From Dictyostelium discoideum (Eukaryota), in NCBI GenBank assembly GCA_000004695.1, contig CM000153.2, forward strand, positions 2,944,001 through 3,008,000: a stretch of DNA of 64,000 nucleotides, given 5' to 3'. A program made the translations under genes and the position numbers. Shown here one piece after another: positions 29,018-42,444 of the stretch (the first letter of the stretch is position 1; the number at the start of each line of letters is the position of its first letter). Below the pieces are notes generated by a model. That model did not search any database, was not told the origin of the DNA, and saw nothing but the letters and a program-made list of their open reading frames with translations.

Positions 29018-31319
29018 TTATTTACTTGATAAAACTTTTGGACCAAGTGAAAGATGAATTAAAGCATCTTGAATGTATTGAGTCATTGCAATTGTTAAAA
29101 GACAAGCATTTGGAATTGTTAAAGGTGAATCAATTAAAGTTAAGGATGGTTGATGTCTACCTTCAATAATGATTGGAGTGAGAAGATTATCTTTGAATTG
29201 ATAATCAGGATAAAGTGTAGTTGGATGAGATCTTTTAGTAGTGGAAGTTGAGGAAGATGATAAAGATGACATTGAACTTGTTGAAGATTGTAAATTATTG
29301 GTAGATTGTGAGGAAGGGACAGAACCACCACCAGTGGCACCAACTCTAGATTTAAAAGGTATATTTAAAAATGATTGTTTAGTTGGATCCCAAATGTATT
29401 TAATTTTATAACTTGTTCTTGGATGAGACCAACACCAATGTTTACCATTCCATGAAATTGAGCCCATATTCTTACTTTTAAAATAACCACATTGATAAAC
29501 CCATTTCATATCGAAACCACCATTCAATGAAAGTGACATTTTACTTGTGATTGAACTAGTTGACATGTTACTACCCTCATTTCTACCATCTTCAGATGGC
29601 GGTTTAAAGATCATTGAAGTGTTGCAATCGAAATGCCATTTTTCATTGATTGCCTCTTCAGTGACAGCTGTCACACCACCACCACCACTACCACCACCAC
29701 CTTGACCTGAACCAATTGGGTCAACTACATTTGATGGTACTTCACTTGATAGTATTGGTGAAGATAAATTACTAGCACTGGTTAAATCAAAATCACAATT
29801 AATATCAAGATTTGGAAATTCAGAATTACCATCATTAAAATTATTTGATGAAACACTAATATTGAAATCTTTTGAATTTGATACTATTTGATGATGAAGA
29901 TGCTGATGATGTGGTGATGGTGGTGGATGTAATTGTTGTTGTGATTTTGAATGATTTAAATCAATAATATTAAGATTAGTATGATCTAATGAATGAATTA
30001 AATTTGACATATTTGGCATTGAACAGGTTGTAGTGGTGGTTGTGGTGGTGGTGGTGGTTGTGGAGGTGATTGAAATGATATTGGATTGATTAATCAATGT
30101 TTTCTTTATACCACTTGTATTTATAGTTACAATACCATCAGAGCTTTGAATGAGCGATCTGTCATAGAACTGATTTAAACTAACGTCATTACAAGAGGCA
30201 ACTTTTGGAATGAATTTCTCAATGTATTCTTTAAATGTTTGTTTCTCTTCCAAGAATTTCGTATTTGGTTTATTATTATTATACTTTCTACAATGAATCA
30301 TATAGTCATTGTAACAATCGATAAAGGTGGTCATATTCTTAAGATGAACTGCAATATCTTTGAAATCCTCTCTAAAGAATCTATTATCTTGATAGGTGGT
30401 AATCTCTGAACTCGTCTTATTAATATACTCAACCCAATTTGACAATACAGTCTCTTCACAACGAATCATTGCTAAACGTGGTCCCTCTGGTCCACCAAAC
30501 CAATCAATATACTCTTTAACTTCACCTCTACAAAATTCTGAAATTTGTTCAACTTGTTTAATAAATGGATCTGCAAGATTAAATGATGCATTATAATTTT
30601 TCATTTGTTTTACCCATTCTTCTGCCATTTCTGGTGAAACTCTATCTGGTAAAATTACTATTTTTAAAAAAATATATTAGTTATAAATATATATATATAT
30701 ATATTAATAAATAATATATAAATATATATATATATTAATAAATAATATAAATATATTTGTAATACATACATGGATTTGTTAAAACTTCTCTAAACTTTTT
30801 AACTTTAGTTAAAACTACAACTGTACAACCAAGTTTATCAATATCAATTTTTTCAAGTGATCTAATTCTTGCGATGAGTAAAGTTAAGAATTGTTTCATT
30901 GAACTCTCATCTTTTGCTTTTACAATGTATGTTCTATGTTTATGAGAGATTTGAAACATTAAGGGTGCGATCTCTTTGGTGTCATCTGGATTACAATCCA
31001 TTAAATTTATATAACCTTGTGGTTCTTGTTTATCGTCTGGTTTGAGTGATGATTTACCAAGTTTATAATATAATATATAGTTTCTATGAAGTGCAAAATA
31101 ACGATCTAAAAATCCTTTACCATTTCCACCTGCTTTCTTCATTATTGATGAATATGATACATCTCCTTTAATTTTTTCATATTCAAATAATTCCTATTAT
31201 ATAAAAAAAAAAAAAATAAAAAAAAATAAATGTTAATACATAATGCATGTGTATGTATTTTTTTTTTTTATTATTTTTGTACTTACTAAAAGCTCTTTCT
31301 TTCTCTCTGTTTTCCCCAT
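29018..31319 (-). CDS. PH-domain-containing protein (~698 aa) with an N-terminal PH domain, a central conserved region and a Ser/Thr/His-rich low-complexity stretch; complement(join(29018..30657,30770..31193,31287..31319)).
   Basis: Exon 1 MGKTERKKELL plus donor GTAAGT (31286-31281). Exon 2 ELFEYEKIKGDVSYSSIMKKAGGNGKGFLDRYFALHRNYILYYK...FQISHKHRTYIVKAKDESSMKQFLTLL is a PH domain. Donor GTATGT at 30769-30764 is phase 1. Acceptor AATAG at 30659-30658 leads into ...ILPDRVSPEMAEEWVKQMKNYNASF... (ORF 29018..30628). Confidence 0.65.
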
Positions 31320-32333
31320 TTTTTTAATTTTAAAAAATATATATATTTATATATATATATTTTATTTATTTACTTAAAAAAGAGTATGTGGGTGTGCGCG
31401 TCTATTTGTATTTTTTTTAAAATTGATTAATATTTATAGTTGAAGAGAAAAAAAAAAAAATACAATCAAATGTAATGCTTTAATTTACAAATAAAATATT
31501 TCTTTCTTTCTTTCTTTCTTTTTTTTTTTTTTTTTTTTGGTATATGTACAATTTTTTGTGTTATTTATTATTAATAAATAAATAAAAAAAAAAAAAAAAT
31601 TTTATAAAGTAAAAAAAAAAAAAAAACTAAATATTACCTTTTTTAAAAGTGGAAAAAAAAAATTAAAAAAAAAAAGGTTTTTAAAAAGAATGGTTGTGAT
31701 TTAACTATATTCGTAAAAATGTGTGATTTATGTAAAATAACCTAAATAGAAAACAACAAAATTTTGTTGTTTTTTTTTATTTTGATTTTTATTATTTTTT
31801 TTTTTTTTAAAAGAAAAAAAGCACCAAGATATTTTTTCGGTGATTTGGTCCGAGCAAAAAATTTTATTTTATTTTATTTTTTTATTTATTTATTAAAAAT
31901 ACAACAATATATTACAAAAATTGAGAATTGAAGATGATTCTTCTCTGTCTCTCTCTTTTTTTTTTTTTTTTTTTTTCTAAAATAATTTTTTTGGTTCGGA
32001 CAAAAAAAAAAAAGAATAAAAATAAAAATAAAAATAAAAAAAAAAATAAATAATAAAATTTTTTTTTTGATAATAAATAAAAATAAAAATAAAAATAAAA
32101 ATAAAAATATTAAAAGTGATATTGGTTAAAACAAAGGTAGAGGTTGTGTTGTGTTATCGATGAGAAAAAAAAAAAAAAAAAAAAAAAAAAATAAAATAAA
32201 AAAAAAATTATATTTGTGTTTTTTTTTTTTTGTTTTTTTTTATTATTTTTTTTATTTTTTTATTTTTTTTTTTTTTTTTGTCAGTTATGATTTTGGGAGG
32301 GCATATTTTTTTTTTTTTTTGATACAATTATGA

Positions 32334-32387
<54 letters not shown>

Positions 32388-32397
32388 NNNNNNNNNN

Positions 32398-32487
32398 NNN
32401 NNNNNNNNNNNNNNNNNNNNNNNNNNNNNNNNNNNNNNNNNNNNNNNNNNNNNNNNNNNNNNNNNNNNNNNNNNNNNNNNNNNNNNN
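32398..32487. other. Assembly gap (90 N) flanked by low-quality-looking sequence.
   Basis: A run of n characters. Flanks are long poly-T/poly-A, and 32500-32530 (ggccggttaaaatttggggggggg) looks like read-end artefact. Confidence 0.95.
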
Positions 32488-32579
32488 AATTTTTTTTTTT
32501 TTTTTGGCCGGTTAAAATTTGGGGGGGGGAAATTTTTTTTTTTTTTTTAACCAATAAAAAAAAAAAAGATTTTTATGGT

Positions 32580-32615
<36 letters not shown>

Positions 32616-32648
32616 TGTGATGGGTTGCTTGGTTTTAATTTTGGAAAG

Positions 32649-32679
<31 letters not shown>

Positions 32680-33350
32680 ATATGCAACCTCTTTAAGGTG
32701 AAAATCAACCTAAATTATTTCTAGTACTACTAGTAGTACTCTATATTACTGCCATACTTAATAAAAATTTTTTATATGATTGATTGATTGATTGATATAT
32801 TATCTATTAGAGAGTGTGTGGTGGTGTTTTTGTGTGTGTGAGTGTGTGTGTTACCTCAAATCATCATTTTGAGGTGCAACACCTTTAACCTTAGCAAAAA
32901 AGCTGCGATTTGGTCATAAAATCCTTTTAAAAAAATACCAAACAAAGGAAGATCTTAAAAAAAAAAAAAAAAAAAAAACTGGAAAAAAAAAAAAAAATAA
33001 TAAATAATTAAATAAATAAATAACCCGCGTCAAATTAACTAGTTTTTACAAATATTCTAAAATAAAAAAATATTACACACATTCCTTTAAACAACATCAT
33101 GATGGTGTACAAAATATTGGTTTCCTAAATATTAAGAAGAAACAAACATCAAGCTCCCCACCACTAATTATGGAGTGGGACCCCATTTTTAAAATGCAAT
33201 CACAATACTGCACAGATTGTACAACAGTTTTTGATTTTTTTTTTTTAGTATTCTTTATTTTATTATTTTTTATTTGTGAGATAATGATGATGATGAACTT
33301 ACTCTCTATAAATACCAAAACTGAGAAAATATTTTAGATGAGATATCATA

Positions 33351-33411
<61 letters not shown>

Positions 33412-33539
33412 TAATATTATAAAAAAAAATAATAATAATAAAAAAAAAAAATAATTAATAGAATAAAAATAATAATAAAAAATTGATCATATCAAATTTG
33501 ATAATAAAAAAAAAAAATAAACAAAACAAAAATAAAAAA

Positions 33540-34560
<1,021 letters not shown>

Positions 34561-34989
34561 AAATAATTAAAAAATAAATTTTATATCTATCTTTATCAAA
34601 TTGCTAATTTGAAATTCATTTTTTTGATCGTCTGTTAATAATTCCATTTTTATTTAATATTTGTACATATAAAATATGTTAAAAAACATCCATTTTGATA
34701 TTTTTAATTTAATTTAATTTTTTTTTTTTAAAAGAGTAAATAAAATTATTTTTTTTTTTTGTTGGAATTCAAAGAATCATCTGAAAAATAAAAAATACAA
34801 AGATATTTAACTAGAAATGATGCCAGTCAAGGATAATGAATAAGCGAGTGCAGCTAGGCCGCTAATCCAGTGAGGAAATAGAGAACGTCAGCTCATTTGG
34901 AGTAAGGAGGCAATAAAAAAAAATAGAAAAAAAAAAAGAAAATAGTATTAAAAAATTGATAAAAAAAAAAATATACAAAAAAAAAATAA

Positions 34990-35252
34990 AAATTATTAAT
35001 AATATTATTAATGTGGTATAATAAATAAAAATACAATAAATTATTTCAATTTTTTTAAATACCAATGGAAAAAAAAAAAAAATAAAAAAAATTTATTTTT
35101 ATTTTTAACTTCTTCATCTAGATTTGATTTCTATTTTTAACTTCCCCATCTTGAATTTATTAGCTCTGAAAAAAAAAAAAAAAAACTACATGCACCACGC
35201 TAGTTTCTTTCAAAAAAATAAAATAAATATAAAAATAAATAATAAGATTAAT

Positions 35253-35317
<65 letters not shown>

Positions 35318-35342
35318 ATTATTAATTTAATTATTATTTTTT

Positions 35343-35379
<37 letters not shown>

Positions 35380-35900
35380 AAAAGATACACCTCAAAAACA
35401 TTTCAGTTGACTGTATTAACTTTGTTGTGATATTATTTTCATATTTTTTTATCATAAATGAAATTATTAAGAAACTCACTGATTGAACGTTTCTAGATTT
35501 TAAAATAATATAAAAAAATGAATTCAAATAATTAGTTCTTATTTTGAAAATGAAAAAAAAGTGGAATTTAATTAATTAAATTTTTTTTTTATTTTTTTTT
35601 ATTTTTTTTTTTTGGAAATGATTGGCTATGGCCCAAATGGAAAATAAAAAAGGAAAAAAATTAAAATAAGAATTTTTTCATTTCATAAAGATAATGATTG
35701 ACTCAACCCAATTATTGTTTAATATTTTAAACTTAAATTTATAATAAAAAAAAAAAAAAAAAAAAAAAAGAAAAAAAATAAAATTAAAAAATAAAATAAA
35801 ATAAAAATAAAAAATTAAGTTGTAATGTGTTATCAAAAATTTTTTATTTTTTTATTGGGGTAAAAAAAAAAAAAAAATAAAAAAAAAATAATTAAAAATT
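34990..35900 (+). repeat. Copy B of the ~1 kb direct duplication; its microsatellite is (CAA)n rather than (ATT)n.
   Basis: See copy A. The block order is conserved with about 80-90% identity. The internal microsatellite differs in motif (CAA vs ATT). Confidence 0.8.
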
Positions 35901-37195
35901 AAAAACACACATTAGTTGGGATTTCAGATAATAATAAAATTTTTTTTACATTAATAACTGTTACAGATAATTTATTTAATTTTGAATTAAATTTATTTTT
36001 TTAATAATTTTTTCAAAAACTATTTAAGAGACAAAATTTTTTTATTTTGTTATTCAAAAATGTCAAATAAATAAAAAAAAAAAAAAAAAAATAAAAAAAA
36101 ATTTAATAAGTTTTAAAATGGTATAGTTTTAATAAAAAAAAAAAAAAAACCACTATCATTAGTAGTAAAAAAAAAATAAAAAATAAAAAAAAAAAAAATA
36201 AAAAAAAATAATAATAAGCTATACCATGGGACTTAGAGAAAATAAAAAAGTTTAAAAAAAAAATAAAAAATAATAAAAAATAAAAAAAAAATAAAAAAAA
36301 AAACTTTTAAAACTCTCCTTCTACTTTTTGGTGCTTCTGTTAAGCTAATGCTAAGGTGTCTCTCTCCCCCTTTGCTTTGCATTACTCTCCTCAAGCTCAG
36401 ATAATCTCGAGCTCCACTAACGATGCTCCTCAAGTATCCTCAGGGTTAATCCATCACATTCCTATGCAACTCTCTCAAATGTATAAGCAGTCTTTAACAA
36501 AAAAAAATATTTAAAAAAAAAAAAAAAAGAAAAAAAAAAAATATTAAAATATTTTTTTTAAAATCAATTTTAAATATAAATAATAATGTTTTTTTTTTTT
36601 TTATAAAAAAAAGAAAGAAAAAAAGAAAAAAAAAAAAAAAAGAAAAAAAGAATTTAAAAAAAAAAAAAAAAATAGAAAAAAAAAAGTTAAAGATGTAATG
36701 GTAAAACCAAAGTAGAATGGAAATCCAAAAAAAGATCTTTATAAATTGCCACTATAATCAATGTATAGATATTGTTCCGTCTGTGTGTATGCTGTTAGGT
36801 CCAGTTTGCTCTTTAGTTACTTTAATTTAAATCTATATTGTAATTTTTATAAAAAAAAAAAAAAGAAAAAAAAAAACAAAAAAAAAAAGAAAAAAGAAAA
36901 AATAATAATAATAATAATAATAATAATACAATAAATTTAAATAAAAATAAAGAATAAACCTTATAGTGGGTTTACCAATTTATAAAAAAAATATTTACAT
37001 ATGCTTTTTATTTTTTATCTCTTTTTTTATATTTTCAGTTTTTTTATCAACTCGATTGACCACTAAAAAAAAATAAAAATATAATAAAAAAAAATAAAAA
37101 AATAAAAATTAAAAATATAAATTTTAAAAAAAACAATGATATTACTATTTTAGATAATGAAATGTTTAATTTATTAATTTTGTATAAATATTTAT

Positions 37196-38039
37196 TTATT
37201 GAGTATTATCTTCATTATTGTCATCATCTGTTGGTTGTTTTTTATCATAAAATGGTTGAAATTCATCTCTGAATTTTAAGGTTTCGGATGTTTCAATTTC
37301 TTTTGTTTTTACACAATCTTTCCAATTTAATTTCTCTGGTATACCTAATAAATCTACCATCACTTTTCTTCCATATTGGAAATCTGGTTTTGATATAACA
37401 CTATAAATTTGCTCACTATTTGGTAAGAAAACTAAATAATATGGTTTATCTTTTAATTCCTAAATAAATAAAAAATAAAATATTAATAAAATTGTTGGGA
37501 TTAAAATTAACTATTTTTTTTTTTTTTTTTTTTTTTTAAAACATTACTTTTCCAGAATTTTCATCATTTTTAAAATCATTAAATTCCATATTATATTTTT
37601 TAGTTAAAGGATGATCAATGAATGATTGCTTTACAGTTGATGATAATTCTTTTGGTATTGGTATAACTTGAAGATGACCATGTAAATCTGTACCACCTTT
37701 TGTACTGATACTTCTTTCAAATATAACTATATCTTGATTGTATTTATCCAAGAAATATTCTCTAAGATAATCAATCATTAAATTAACATCTTTTCTTTCC
37801 TCTTCATTCAATGACATGAAATTTGGTTTATGTTCTGTGAAAACAATCAATAAATTATGTTCAACCATACCACCTTTTGGAAATGCTAAATAACATTCAT
37901 CACCAATTGTAACAATTAAATGACTATCAACTTCTGGTGATGATAAACAAAACCAACAACTTTGATCTTGATGTTTTTGTTTTAGTTGTTGTTGTTGTTG
38001 TTGTTGATTATTAATTCTTTTATTATAATTATTATTATA

Positions 38040-38135
<96 letters not shown>

Positions 38136-39415
38136 TCTATTATTGTTATTATTATAATTATTATTTGTATTATTAAAAAAGAAATTTGTTTGTTGTTCGT
38201 CAGAATTTCTTTGTTTTTTTGAGACATGTTCATCAAGTTCTCTTTGTTTTCTTTCGAATGGATTTGGTGTTATGTCATCCTTATTAATATCTTTATTTGG
38301 GTTATAACTCATTGCAAATAAATACTGTAAAGAATAAATTTAAAAAAGTAAGAATAATTTTAATTTATAAAAAAAAAACAAAACAAATAATTGAAAAAAT
38401 GATTTTTTTTAAATTACTTACTTTTTCTTTTTTATCATTATTAATTGGTGCTAAAGAAAGGAATCTTGTTGGTTGTGGATTTTTATTTTTTAAAGTTGGT
38501 GTATTGTAATAAGGTGCTCTTTGAAAGTAAAATGAATTCTTTGAAAAGTGATAAGCTGGTGTTAATGCTTGTGATACTAATTTAACACCATCAATACCAA
38601 TTTTATAAGGTGTTTTTAAAAATGTTGGTATACCACTTGTAACATTATTTAATACACCTCTTGACCATTGATTACTTAATAATATATCTATTCTTTTATC
38701 TTCACCTTCTTTTATAATATTATCAATTTCTGATTTTATAATTGTATTTTCTTCCTATATATATATATATATATAAATCAATTGGATAAATTAATAATAA
38801 TTTAGAATGATAATAAAACATATATTTATAAGCGGTATACAAACTTACATTTGATTGAATTTTAATTGGATAATCAATTTTACCAGAAAGATAAGCAATA
38901 TTTAAATTTGAAATATTTTTAATTCCGCATTTACCTAAATAAGTGATACCTTTACATAACTCACCTGTTTCTTTATTAACAAATTTTTTAATATATTTAA
39001 AATCTGATTGACTATATGCAATGAAGTAAGTTGGTATTGGTACATTTTCAATTTCGTCTTTATATGGTTGTAATTCTTTTGGAAATGTTAATTCATTTTC
39101 ATCTTTATCATCTGAATTATTATTATTATTATTATTGTTATTGTTATCATTATCATTATTATTTTCATCTTTATCATCTGCATCATTACTATTGTTATTA
39201 TTTTCATTACTAATATTAGTTGTTGGGTGGTATGGTTCAAAAAATGAACCTACACATAATAATAATGAAAAAGGTCCATTTGATTTATTAACTGTTGAAA
39301 CTCTTTTAAAAAGAGCATTAAAACTTCCACCTATATCACCACAAACCAATCTGTTATTTATTAAAAAAAAGAATTAGGATTTAAAAAAAAAAAAAAAAAA
39401 AAAAATATCTGTTAA

Positions 39416-39448
<33 letters not shown>

Positions 39449-39476
39449 CAATTGACTTACATTTTATGTGTCTCCA
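37196..39476 (-). CDS. cwf19l1: CWF19-like protein 1 (CWF19L1) homolog, 5 exons; complement(join(37196..37459,37548..38324,38422..38754,38849..39350,39460..39476)).
   Basis: A 17-nt first exon METHKI with donor GTAAGT joins LVCGDIGGSFNALFKRV...LLCVGSFF (N-terminal metallophosphatase-like domain). The poly-Asn/Asp insert stays in frame. Donors are GTAAGT, GTAAGT and GTAATG, each with a (T)nAG acceptor. Exon 4 carries CwfJ_C_1 (CWFCLSSPEVDSHLIVTIGDECYLAFPKGG...HGHLQVIP) and exon 5 CwfJ_C_2 (ELKDKPYYLVFLP...). All phases are consistent. Confidence 0.75.
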
Positions 39477-39690
39477 TTGATAGATATTCTCAAAGTGTGA
39501 AATATTTTAAAATTAAAAAAAAAAAAAGAAAATCAAAAAAAAGTAAAAAATTGAGGTTTGTTGAAAAAAAAAAAAAAAAAATATATATTTTTTTTCAACA
39601 AACTAAATCCATATTGAAACAATGTTTATTTATAGAACACTCAAAAATACACAAAATTATATAAAATATAAAAAAAATGAATGTAACCAT

Positions 39691-39723
<33 letters not shown>

Positions 39724-39965
39724 TTTAATTATTCACCAAACATTCAAAAAAAAAAAAAAAAAAAAAAAAACTAATTTTAAAACATCAATTTGTGTCGTTC
39801 CTCAAAATAAAAAAACAATTACAAAAATGAAAGATAAATTAAATTCTAAAAATAAAATTTTTGATTAGGAAAAACAAAAAAAAAATTTTATTGGTTCCGT
39901 TTTTTTGTCTTTATGTTTATCTAATATTCTTTTTAATTTAATTATGATGGTTATATTGTCATGAG

Positions 39966-39996
<31 letters not shown>

Positions 39997-40122
39997 TGGA
40001 TGAGATTCATATTATAATCATTTTTATAAATTAATTTTAATTATGGAAATTATTTAAGTAAAAAAAAAAAAAAAAAAATGTTTCGTTTCGTGAAATTTTA
40101 ACTAAAAAAAAAAAAATAAAAA

Positions 40123-40158
<36 letters not shown>

Positions 40159-40230
40159 TTTTTCATTTTTATTTTTTTTTTTGTGCGTAGGATAGAAAAA
40201 AACGTCAAAATTCCTTTTATTTATAAATAA

Positions 40231-42444
<2,214 letters not shown>

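Follow-up and report, generated by a model that had tools for sequence, protein, structure and literature searches.

Small non-coding RNA (ncRNA) genes in the genome of Dictyostelium discoideum look like GC-rich islands in AT-rich intergenic DNA. Dictyostelid Class I RNAs are 42-65 nt long and carry the 11-nt motif CCUUACAGCAA beside a 5'/3' terminal stem; the consensus of the DUSE is [AT]CCCA[CT]AA. A DUSE is found upstream of many of the known small ncRNA genes, and Class I RNAs – defined by a conserved motif of ~11 nt together with a short terminal stem – are recognized by a DUSE ~60 nt upstream of the start or of a TGTG box (Kjellin et al. 2021, PMC7919456). Long non-coding RNAs (lncRNAs) of D. 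discoideum were cataloged by Rosengarten et al. 2017 (PMC5295588): the 621 models are at least 200 bp in length, have RNA-seq support and are wholly intergenic. The same work gives a mean of ~700 bp for intergenic regions and reports a higher GC content for expressed lncRNAs than for silent intergenic DNA (PMC5295588). A third body of data concerns upstream regions bound by the GATA factor GtaC, for which all peaks between a gene and its upstream neighbor were credited to that gene (Santhanam et al. 2015, PMC4506546).

The locus described here, a GC-rich island of D. discoideum AX4, was compared with each of these systems. Like the D. discoideum lncRNAs the island is intergenic, lacks coding potential and exceeds silent intergenic DNA in GC; unlike them it has 43-45% GC against a lncRNA median of 17%, and it is known as a conserved sequence, whereas the catalog was made without cross-species conservation (PMC5295588). 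Like the DUSE-dependent small ncRNA genes (PMC7919456) it is a GC-richer island in AT-rich DNA that is conserved in Dictyostelia, flanked by a motif at a near-fixed distance (~70-87 nt) and, at its opposite end, by a T run; the flanking motif, however, is ACTTAGRGAAAA and not the DUSE. In contrast to Class I RNAs (42-65 nt), it is ~190 nt long, and it differs from the group, which also comprises snRNAs and snoRNAs, in having no conserved C/D boxes, no clear H/ACA boxes and no conserved fold. Finally, like the GtaC-bound upstream regions (PMC4506546), it belongs to a cluster of near-invariant motifs, GATA and GATC motifs among them, that has stayed linked to dagA through a rearrangement, but unlike these the island is long, GC-rich, strand-skewed, less conserved than its flanks and ~5 kb from dagA.

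Position, composition and coding status

The stretch of DNA analyzed (64,000 nt, hereafter the window) comes from chromosome 4, where chromosomal position equals window coordinate + 2,944,000. Within it the island occupies a gene-less stretch of 5.9 kb between dagA/CRAC – a chemotaxis gene with a key part in cAMP relay and aggregation – and a CWF19L1-like gene. The features referred to below are as follows (window coordinates).

35921..36126, unstranded: AT-rich conserved left part of the wider block; D. firmibasis identity 0.82
36218..36262, unstranded: flanking element GCTATACCATGGGACTTAGAGAAAAT-AAAAAGTTTAAAAAAAAA, ~40-85 nt left of the island; D. firmibasis identity 0.96
36231-36242: 12-mer ACTTAGRGAAAA, inside the flanking element 36218..36262
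36304..36498 (chr4 2,980,304-2,980,498), unstranded: GC-rich island; non-coding, single-copy, with orthologues in relatives
36304..36350, unstranded: left edge of the island, CTTTTAAAACTCTCC..TCTACTTTTTGGTGC..CTAATG; mostly invariant columns in a five-sequence alignment
36422..36455, unstranded: conserved 34-nt block, GATG(Y)(W)CCT..AGT.TCCTC..GGTT...CCATC
36485..36498, unstranded: right edge of the island, AAG...TCTTTAAC, then an A run; conserved in alignments
36686..36842, unstranded: second conserved block, with a nearly invariant core of 52 nt at 36705-36756, AACCAAAGTAGAATGGAAATCCAAAAAAAGATCTTTATAAATTGCCACTATA
36936..36991, unstranded: conserved block TTTAAATAAAAATAAAGAATAAACCTTATAGTGGG...ACCAATTTATAAAAAAAA; D. 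firmibasis G/C-site identity 1.0
40261-42441: DHX15 ORF, 100% identical to D. discoideum AX4 XP_638323

The original prediction was of a candidate structured ncRNA in an isolated GC-richer island with extreme A/T surroundings. As to composition it was correct: the sequence quoted there (36313-36478) has 44.6% GC (74 of 166 bases) and the interval 36300-36480 has 41.4%, while the flanks have 10.5% (36100-36299) and 6.5% (36501-36700). Windows of 100 bp with at least 45% GC make up the top 1% of the 64 kb; they form ~14 peaks, only two of which – the island and 34790-34944 – lie outside long ORFs. Base counts on the plus strand (C 52, T 58, G 22, A 34) make that strand pyrimidine-rich and the minus strand purine-rich. 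The mappable island, ~190 bp, is bounded by homopolymer runs. Its ends are conserved and its middle varies in sequence and length: D. purpureum has ~105 nt, D. firmibasis ~245 nt. A slippage-prone CT/C run at 36356-36375 differs even among D. discoideum assemblies. Read on the minus strand, the right edge is a T-run followed by GTTAAAGA, an 8-mer that also starts the next conserved block on the plus strand (36686). Five GC-richer islands of the gene desert, compared with each other, showed no mutual similarity and are thus not a repeat family.

The island is a real GC-rich patch, non-protein-coding and single-copy. An ORF on the minus strand (36233..36433), to which an amino-acid composition atypical of Dictyostelium had been ascribed, is present; it begins with TTG and extends into the poly-T flank. 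The inference drawn from it, that the island does not code, agrees with the comparative data: no frame is open across all relatives, indels among orthologues (1, 2, 4, 7 and 23 nt) are not multiples of three, and the D. firmibasis island has 4-8 stops in each frame. A small protein from the 66-codon TTG ORF of AX4 was rejected on the ground that the ORF is not kept in relatives, and orthologues likewise rule out a small ORF in the plus-strand frame, which in AX4 stays open over 54 codons. Neither an ORF nor a protein similarity was found for the island. A minus-strand splice acceptor (T-run plus TTAAAG/A) was also discarded: there is no conserved GT donor, D. dimigraforme having GAAGAT where AX4 has GTAGAA. 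As for descent from a transposon, which had been named as a finding that would count against an RNA gene, the window contains the island just once, and a search of ~290 kb of dictyostelid DNA located it at orthologous positions only; the profile search gave one further match (25 bits), at the start of an unrelated small ORF in locus L004.

Conservation of the island and of the block around it

DHX15 is followed by a gene-less gap and then by dagA in D. purpureum, P. violaceum and H. album. D. discoideum and D. firmibasis have the gap and dagA in inverted orientation, with the CWF19L1-like gene lying in between. The place of the conserved block is the dagA side of the intergenic region both before and after the inversion, and a long, ORF-free gap upstream of dagA is common to all five species. 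The dagA start codon is ~5 kb away from the island, and dagA carries a CA/GC-rich element of its own near its start. Exons of the CWF19L1-like gene and of dagA, used as protein queries, retrieved few relatives or none.

Conservation in related species had been proposed as a check, and orthologues of the island were indeed found: in three other D. discoideum-type assemblies, in D. firmibasis and in D. dimigraforme. Identity is 100% in L006, 93% in L005 and L007, 72-84% in D. firmibasis and 70-85% in D. dimigraforme. At G/C sites identity to D. firmibasis is 0.62, compared with 0.0-0.27 for neighboring unconstrained DNA and 0.93 for coding DNA (the left edge of the island reaches 0.78). A GC content of ~40% is retained in the orthologues even where the sequence varies, against ~10% in intergenic DNA, and the boundaries of the island are sharp and conserved, with invariant edge motifs. 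The pyrimidine skew of the window's plus strand is kept in all orthologues, D. purpureum included, which suggests a strand-specific role.

For D. purpureum, homology is argued from the unique 12-mer ACTTAGRGAAAA and from collinearity. The nhmmer scores there (22-29 bits) are equaled by the 25-bit match to the unrelated small ORF of L004, and homology sought through shared GC-containing 8-mers did not rise above controls. The 12-mer, by comparison, occurs exactly once in the window (0.02 expected) and once each in L001, L002, L003, L005, L006 and L007, and nowhere else in the fetched loci; wherever present it is ~70-87 nt from the island, and in L001 (D. purpureum) it is on the minus strand, as the inversion predicts. 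Metagenome scans with the conserved motifs returned no matches. Being conserved in related social amoebae, the island is probably functional.

Intergenic DNA at this locus is mostly unalignable even with D. firmibasis. The island nevertheless forms part of a ~1.1-kb conserved non-coding block (about 35,920-36,990), in which conservation is far higher in the AT-rich flanking motifs than in the island. The left part of the block (35921..36126) contains the GATA-type CAGATAAT at 35925 and 35964 and ATTTAATAAGTTTTAAAATGGTATAG at 36101-36126, and has a collinear nhmmer match in D. purpureum (L001 13215-13090, minus strand, 22 bits). To the right, the original prediction had placed a second, smaller island at 36760-36830: this is real (32% GC), but the meaningful unit is the conserved block 36686-36842. 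That block, likewise non-coding, is identical in L005 and L007. Compared with D. firmibasis it has an identity of 0.81 across all sites and 0.73 across G/C sites, and deletions have removed 1 nt from it in D. firmibasis and 7 nt in D. dimigraforme. The last block (36936..36991) adjoins the 3' end of the neighboring gene in every species with a fetched locus, and has several AATAAA hexamers on the plus strand, and TATAAAT and a DUSE-like CCCACTATAAGG on the minus strand. The window has just two occurrences of the motif CCACTATAA, at 36749 (plus) and 36961 (minus). Conserved inverted repeats around A-rich spacers (36118/36219, 36491/36686 and 36749/36961) are not above chance in number (2 vs 0.5 expected; 34 of 300 simulations).

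If the island were a decaying relic without function – whether from an old transposon insertion, from the exon of a gene since lost or from foreign DNA – then its variable middle and its slippage-prone CT/C run would be readily accounted for, function itself being putative. Set against this are its single-copy state, across ~290 kb of related loci as in the window, its orthologous placement in four independent assemblies plus at least three further species, and the retention of G/C sites far above that of neighboring DNA in a genome that drives unconstrained sequence to ~10% GC. Nor is there an ORF, a protein similarity or, in the homologous gap of P. violaceum, any possible source gene. We regard a relic as highly improbable.

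RNA structure and known ncRNA classes

The claim of a structured RNA was not supported: on neither strand is there an Rfam family, a fold better than that of shuffled sequences, or robust covariation. Even with the cutoff relaxed to E<=10, the Rfam/Infernal search that had been recommended matched the island in none of AX4, D. firmibasis and D. purpureum, save for a hit to NEAT1_2 that was dismissed as spurious (12.8 bits against a gathering score of 60). At gathering thresholds Rfam (release 15) had no match in the whole window, nor did the corresponding D. firmibasis and D. purpureum regions give a shared family; a tRNA scan of the window was likewise empty. Folding, the other check proposed, gave minimum free energies not clearly better than those of shuffles (z = -1.72 for the plus strand, +0.29 for the minus strand). 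Consensus energies from RNAalifold were only -7.5 and -8.9 kcal/mol over ~210 nt, and individual folds of the orthologues differ from one another. Within the 34-nt block (36422..36455) a small hairpin is possible on either strand (GAUG/CAUC plus ACC/GGU); its pairs are kept in all sequences, but since they almost never vary the hairpin is little informative either way.

Candidate classes were considered in turn. There are five matches to the DUSE (WCCCAYAA) in the window, none of them between 23,102 and 42,917. The Class I motif CCUUACAGCAA, allowing up to 2 mismatches, is absent from the island (8 occurrences in the window vs 9.1 expected), and with neither DUSE nor motif and a length of ~190 nt the island was rejected as a dictyostelid Class I RNA. 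On the minus strand of AX4, GUGAUGG followed by CUGA 7 nt later resembles a box C/D arrangement, in which a conserved C box (RUGAUGA) and D box (CUGA) near the ends are joined by a terminal stem; a box C/D snoRNA was rejected on finding CUAGA in place of CUGA in D. firmibasis and D. dimigraforme, and CGAUGG as the C-like box in D. dimigraforme, and no entry at chr4 2.980 Mb was found in the snoRNA supplement of PMC8817022. For H/ACA RNAs, which fold as hairpin-hinge-hairpin-tail and have an ACA 3 nt from the 3' end, the plus strand ends in a conserved UCUUUAACAAA, the ends of the RNA being putative, while the 3' hairpin predicted for AX4 (helix 4) is broken in D. firmibasis and D. dimigraforme. 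Neither strand's minimum-free-energy structure contains the extended hairpin of a miRNA precursor, and the miRNA supplements of PMC11014262 and PMC6161686 yielded no entry with the coordinates of the island. A telomerase-RNA-like template from the CUCUCUCCCCCU run was dismissed, since neither D. firmibasis nor D. dimigraforme has kept the run.

A compact, structure-dependent small RNA, of a known class (snoRNA-, snRNA- or Class I-like) or a new one, would fit the GC-rich-island appearance of this genome's small ncRNA genes, a possible terminal stem linking the conserved ends, and the one small hairpin kept in all species. It would fit, too, a minus-strand body that in no species contains a run of four or more Ts and is directly followed by a T run, yet composition alone explains the T-free body. 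In the minus-strand RNAalifold structure four pairs have changed on both sides, against 1.2 in shuffles. This signal is equaled on the plus strand when the structure is derived from AX4 and vanishes with a structure derived from D. firmibasis; we rejected it as inflation, the structure having been derived from the same sequences. Given also the empty Rfam searches in three species, the lack of a DUSE within reach or of a significant Class I motif, C/D-like boxes that are not kept, fold energies with no clear advantage over shuffles, discordant folds and a length ranging from ~105 to ~245 nt, such an RNA is very improbable, and the label of structured ncRNA needs toning down.

Transcript or regulatory DNA

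The reading that we favor, tentatively and at a little under even confidence, is that an unannotated non-coding transcription unit has the island as its GC-rich body, within the ~1.1-kb conserved block at the distal end of the region upstream of dagA. Its product may be a short RNA, or an exon-like segment of a longer lncRNA, and would act through conserved primary-sequence motifs and its purine/pyrimidine skew, for example as a protein-binding platform, rather than by a compact conserved fold. This reading is favored because the island is non-coding and constrained, has kept its skew, has sharp boundaries, and shares its intergenic region with lncRNA models. Transcription of that region is itself demonstrated: five cataloged models map to 31597-35078, between dagA and DDB_G0285233 (offset set by the coordinates of DDB_G0285161 and DDB_G0285233). 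None of the 621 models covers the island, the nearest ending at chr4 2,979,078 (window 35078) and the next lying at 3,033,323, but this absence is weak evidence, since an island with ~190 mappable bp falls below the 200-bp minimum. The GC-richness of expressed lncRNAs also speaks for a transcript. Counting against one are the lack of a covering model, of a matching entry in the miRNA and snoRNA supplements and of a nearby DUSE, and promoter-like contexts on both strands. The composition of known transcripts did not discriminate between strands.

Transcription of the island, its strand, its ends and its mode of action are all matters that we infer, and a model that fits the anatomy can be drawn for each strand. 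On the plus strand an RNA of ~0.7 kb would have the ACTTAGRGAAAA element ~70 nt upstream, start at the conserved TTTT/AAAAC junction near 36,305, run through the island and an A-rich spacer into the 36686-36842 block, and terminate within a conserved cluster of AATAAA hexamers (around 36,940-36,960), tail-to-tail with the neighboring gene. The minus-strand model has the invariant GTTAAAGA directly preceded by an oligo-dT run (36,506-36,520) and a TATA-like box, and would give a purine-rich RNA of ~190 nt that ends at the T run 36,300-36,318; alternatively, the RNA may continue towards the minus-strand lncRNA models further on. A more specific proposal, that island and ACTTAGRGAAAA make up a new type of group-4 Dictyostelium ncRNA gene, with its own promoter element instead of a DUSE and an RNA functionally linked to dagA, is quite improbable.

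The main rival to a transcript is a regulatory module at the level of DNA: a cluster of conserved elements, enhancer or distal promoter, serving dagA/CRAC or the neighboring lncRNAs, binding transcription factors such as GtaC, with GC content and skew contributing to chromatin or DNA structure. That the block stayed on the dagA side through the inversion, and that dagA has a long ORF-free upstream gap in all species compared, is as expected of such a module, and so are the lack of conserved RNA structure and the patchy conservation, with the best-conserved pieces outside the island: an island less conserved than its AT-rich flanking motifs would suit a regulatory region as well. Within the block, the GATA-type CAGATAAT (35925, 35964) and the GATC motif AAAGATCTTT (36734) are conserved, but the copy of CAGATAAT at 36398, within the island, is confined to the D. 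discoideum assemblies. Against a module, known Dictyostelium cis-elements are much smaller than 190 bp. The island by contrast has 190 bp of continuous 45% GC with its skew kept, and the invariant runs of 40-52 nt exceed single binding sites. The distance to the dagA start, ~5 kb, is large for a genome with an intergenic mean of ~700 bp, and dagA has its CA/GC-rich element nearer by. On the supporting side, the putative targets listed for GtaC include dagA (DDB_G0285161), whose ChIP binding scores, given for its 5.9-kb upstream region as a whole, are 0.32, 1.32 and 2.04 (PMC4506546). We consider a regulatory module possible, though on the unlikely side.

Returning to the favored reading and its rival alike, the block sits in an unusually long, lncRNA-rich region upstream of dagA/CRAC that is reported to be GtaC-bound (PMC4506546). 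With near-invariant runs of 40-52 nt that are better conserved than adjacent coding DNA, the 1.1-kb block is a clear candidate for function. Non-coding sequence that can be aligned between dictyostelid species is, to our knowledge, uncommon, and what is gained here is a testable locus rather than a new mechanism. A transcribed island would contribute a lineage-specific, conserved ncRNA whose promoter apparently does not depend on a DUSE; an untranscribed one would make the block a case of a conserved regulatory module acting at a distance in Dictyostelium, of which, as far as we know, few have been described.

Placement and composition of the island

The ORF at window 40261-42441 is 100% identical to DHX15 of D. 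discoideum AX4 (XP_638323). Two published chromosome 4 genes – DDB_G0285161 (2,973,018-2,975,319, minus strand) and DDB_G0285233 (2,981,196-2,983,477, minus strand; PMC5295588, File S6) – correspond by coordinates to a PH-domain gene (window 29018-31319) and to the CWF19L1-like gene ending at 37196/7: chromosome position is thus 2,944,000 plus window position. DDB_G0285161 is dagA, which encodes CRAC. The island lies in 5.9 kb without protein-coding genes, a stretch that dagA borders with its 5' end and DDB_G0285233 with its 3' end:

Chromosome 4, 2,980,304-2,980,498 (window 36304-36498), no strand assigned: GC-rich island

GC content at 36313-36478, the sequence quoted in the original prediction, is 44.6%, against 10.5% and 6.5% in the 200-base flanks; the predicted island in A/T surroundings is therefore real and beyond chance. 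At least 45% GC per 100 bp corresponds to the top 1% of the 64 kb, and outside long ORFs peaks of this height occur in the 64-kb window only at the island and at 34790-34944. Pyrimidines make up 66% of the island's plus strand. The smaller second island predicted at 36760-36830 is also genuine and belongs to a conserved block, 36686-36842.

Conservation across dictyostelids

Orthologous loci were reached through cluster members of the DHX15 protein: three further D. discoideum-type assemblies (L005, L006, L007), D. firmibasis (L002), D. dimigraforme (L003), D. cf. discoideum (L004), D. purpureum (L001), and P. violaceum, T. lacteum and H. album (L008-L010). The original prediction named conservation in related species as a check, and the island is indeed found at the orthologous place, once per locus, in L006 (100% identity), L005 and L007 (93%), D. 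firmibasis (72-84%) and D. dimigraforme (70-85%), and in all five its position relative to neighbouring conserved blocks is identical.

To measure constraint, the intergenic region was aligned with MAFFT and the AX4 G/C positions kept in D. firmibasis were scored; G/C sites alone were used because in an AT-rich genome A/T positions match too readily to be informative.

G/C-site identity between AX4 and D. firmibasis
Island, whole: 0.62
Island, left edge: 0.78
Island, middle: 0.50
Island, right part: 0.59
Element 36218-36262: 0.91
Block 36686-36842: 0.73
Block 36936-36991: 1.0
Adjacent coding DNA: 0.93
Tandem-duplicated stretch: 0.12-0.27
Other GC island, 34790-34944: 0.0
CWF19L1-like gene, 3' flank: 0.05
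A-rich spacers: 0.11-0.17

An identity of 0.62, compared with 0.0-0.27 nearby, indicates that the island is constrained, if only moderately; a relic without function is very improbable. The flanking elements (36218-36262, 36686-36842 and 36936-36991) are kept better than the island, and together with it and an AT-rich alignable part from ~35,920 they make up a conserved non-coding block of ~1.1 kb. Within this block a non-coding 52-nt core at 36705-36756 (AACCAAAGTAGAATGGAAATCCAAAAAAAGATCTTTATAAATTGCCACTATA) is nearly invariant in four taxa (one deletion in D. firmibasis, one substitution in D. dimigraforme), its conservation exceeding that of adjacent coding DNA; CTTTATAAATT..CAC of this core is present in D. 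purpureum at the collinear place. Three perfect inverted repeats of 8-9 bp (36118-36126/36219-36227, 36491-36498/36686-36693 and 36749-36757/36961-36969), all in conserved blocks, each flank one A-rich low-complexity spacer, with loops of 92, 187 and 203 nt. Palindromic protein sites or RNA helices of long range would fit this arrangement; the number of repeats is not above chance and their arms are without covariation.

The ancestral order, seen in H. album, P. violaceum and D. purpureum, is DHX15 (plus), a gene-less gap, then dagA (plus). The gap measures ~0.6 kb in H. album (between gene models that look unreliable), 3 kb in P. violaceum (no ORF longer than 112 codons) and 4.5 kb in D. purpureum. 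The D. discoideum (window 29018-42444) and D. firmibasis loci have the gap together with dagA in inverted orientation, with the CWF19L1-like gene between the gap and DHX15, and in D. dimigraforme an extra FNIP-repeat gene stands between the CWF19L1-like gene and the conserved block. An ORF-free region of 3-5.9 kb upstream of dagA has been kept from P. violaceum to D. discoideum, and in every case the conserved block occupies the gap end farthest from dagA, adjoining the 3' end of the next gene.

Profile matches in D. purpureum are collinear (L001 13215-13090, 12935-12770 and 12387-12355) and all on the minus strand, as predicted by the inversion; their scores are no higher than that of an unrelated match in D. 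cf. discoideum, and shared 8-mers are not above controls. Homology was decided by a 12-mer, ACTTAGRGAAAA. It occurs at window 36231-36242 (one copy in the window, 0.02 expected) and at L001 12921-12932 (minus), once each in L001, L002, L003, L005, L006 and L007; the remaining four loci lack it. In all seven loci including the window it stands 70-87 nt from the island. This unique flanking motif reaches D. purpureum, whose island is shorter (~105 nt) and on the strand that corresponds is again rich in pyrimidines. In P. violaceum no homologue came to light. The 12-mer may be a promoter element or one for end processing, and it differs from DUSE, a known signal of Dictyostelium small ncRNA genes.

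Elsewhere in the gene desert a diverged tandem duplication (33450-34578 and 34912-35903; ~69% identity, period ~1.4 kb) is shared with L005-L007 and is mostly unalignable with D. firmibasis. The near-identical L006 lacks the 100-N gap of the AX4 reference at window 32388-32600 and the ~110 bp that follow (AATTTT..GGCCGGTTAAAATTTGGGGGGGGGAAA..), its poly-T run being joined straight to GTGTGATGGG; gap and odd adjoining sequence look like an assembly artefact.

Coding, repeat and structured-RNA readings

If the island encoded protein, an open frame should persist. Stops interrupt all three plus frames and two of three minus frames in AX4, the D. firmibasis orthologue carries 4-8 per frame and lacks the AX4 ORF, and indels among aligned orthologues measure 1, 2, 4, 7 and 23 nt. 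The minus-strand ORF at 36233..36433 in the original prediction does exist, but starts with TTG and reads into poly-T. No second copy was found in the 64-kb window, and over ~290 kb of dictyostelid DNA the profile matched orthologous places only, with one exception of 25 bits in L004. Both the protein-coding and the transposon-fragment readings are therefore rejected, and the predicted non-coding nature of the island is borne out. The L004 match covers the start, with its A-rich leader, of an unrelated, uncalled 61-codon ORF (L004 7700-7882, minus; MSTFADLRSVSGALLGGMGSIGVAALGAYF..., membrane-protein-like) upstream of DHX15; no counterpart of this ORF was found in the window or the remaining loci.

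The further claim, that the island is structured, fared less well. Neither the island nor its orthologues match an Rfam family, even at E<=10. Folding of the AX4 island is not clearly better than that of dinucleotide shuffles (z = -1.72 plus, +0.29 minus), and the RNAalifold consensus over ~210 nt reaches -7.5 (plus) and -8.9 (minus) kcal/mol with a negligible covariation term. On the minus strand four consensus pairs show two-sided changes, against 1.2 in shuffles, for a structure that had been fitted to these same five sequences; the MFE structure of the AX4 sequence alone gives a like excess on both strands, which disappears with the structure derived from D. firmibasis. Orthologue folds have one small hairpin in common (36422-36455), whose pairs barely vary, and island length differs more than 2-fold among species. 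A compact conserved fold is not supported, by tests whose power is low with four effectively independent sequences, and a compact structured small RNA seems unlikely.

The DUSE consensus, [AT]CCCA[CT]AA, does not occur between window 23,102 and 42,917. A DUSE-like CCCACTATAAGG lies on the minus strand of the 36936-36991 block, with nothing conserved 60 nt away. In many small ncRNA genes DUSE is found ~60 nt upstream (PMC7919456), whereas the island has ACTTAGRGAAAA at 70-87 nt instead. The Class I motif, another such signal, is absent from the island, and box C/D-like letters of the AX4 island do not persist in relatives.

Beyond the original prediction, the analysis fixes the island's exact position in the genome, excludes the readings as coding sequence, repeat or known family, and recognises the island as a piece of a larger conserved block.

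Possible transcript or regulatory element

A published catalogue of developmental lncRNAs places five models between dagA and DDB_G0285233 (PMC5295588):

Catalogued lncRNA models, window coordinates (PMC5295588)
31597-32174, plus strand
32750-33257, plus strand
33457-33858, minus strand
34139-35078, minus strand
34525-34938, plus strand

The catalogue, whose entries had to span at least 200 bp with an unbroken tiling path, has no model over 35,079-37,195 (PMC5295588), a weak negative since homopolymer runs leave less than 200 bp mappable in the island and likewise in the 36686-36842 block. Island coordinates were not found in the miRNA and snoRNA supplements searched.

The other GC peak, 34790-34944 (46% GC, stops in all frames), is overlapped by models 34139-35078 (minus) and 34525-34938 (plus), is absent from D. 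firmibasis and is 48-74% identical in L005/L007: young or fast-evolving yet expressed, the reverse of the island's pattern. Both D. discoideum and D. purpureum carry a CA-rich tract (CACACACACTCACACACAC...; window 32796-32850, minus; L001 15052-15147) ~1.5 kb upstream of dagA, on the sense strand of that gene. In AX4 the tract falls within model 32750-33257; it resembles C/A-rich elements of developmental promoters.

An ncRNA reading of the island is plausible, and that it is a non-coding transcript, of either strand, has a little less than an even chance. A strand-specific transcribed unit is favoured by the conserved strand skew, by ~40% GC being kept even through variable stretches, by edges that are both sharp and conserved, by the motif at near-fixed distance and by the lncRNAs around it. 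On the plus strand, ACTTAGRGAAAA would be the upstream promoter element, transcription would start at the conserved TTTT/AAAAC junction, the A-rich spacers would be A runs of the sense strand, and the invariant AATAAA cluster at 36,940-36,960 could provide the poly(A) signal; in every species such a unit and the neighbouring gene would be arranged tail-to-tail. For the minus strand, the start may be marked by a TATA-like box and oligo-dT run immediately before the invariant GTTAAAGA, with a T run after the island; start sites in Dictyostelium classically have this layout of box and run. The two models are not told apart by the sense-strand composition of known transcripts.

A DNA-level regulatory module for dagA or local lncRNAs is a possible, somewhat less likely alternative. 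The block stayed linked to dagA through the inversion, GATA/GATC motifs are conserved in it, and its flanks exceed the island in conservation; dagA is moreover among the putative targets of GtaC, a GATA factor (ChIP binding scores 0.32, 1.32 and 2.04), in a study that credited a gene with every peak located between it and the next gene upstream (PMC4506546). The island is best filed as a lineage-restricted, unannotated conserved non-coding transcript or regulatory element.
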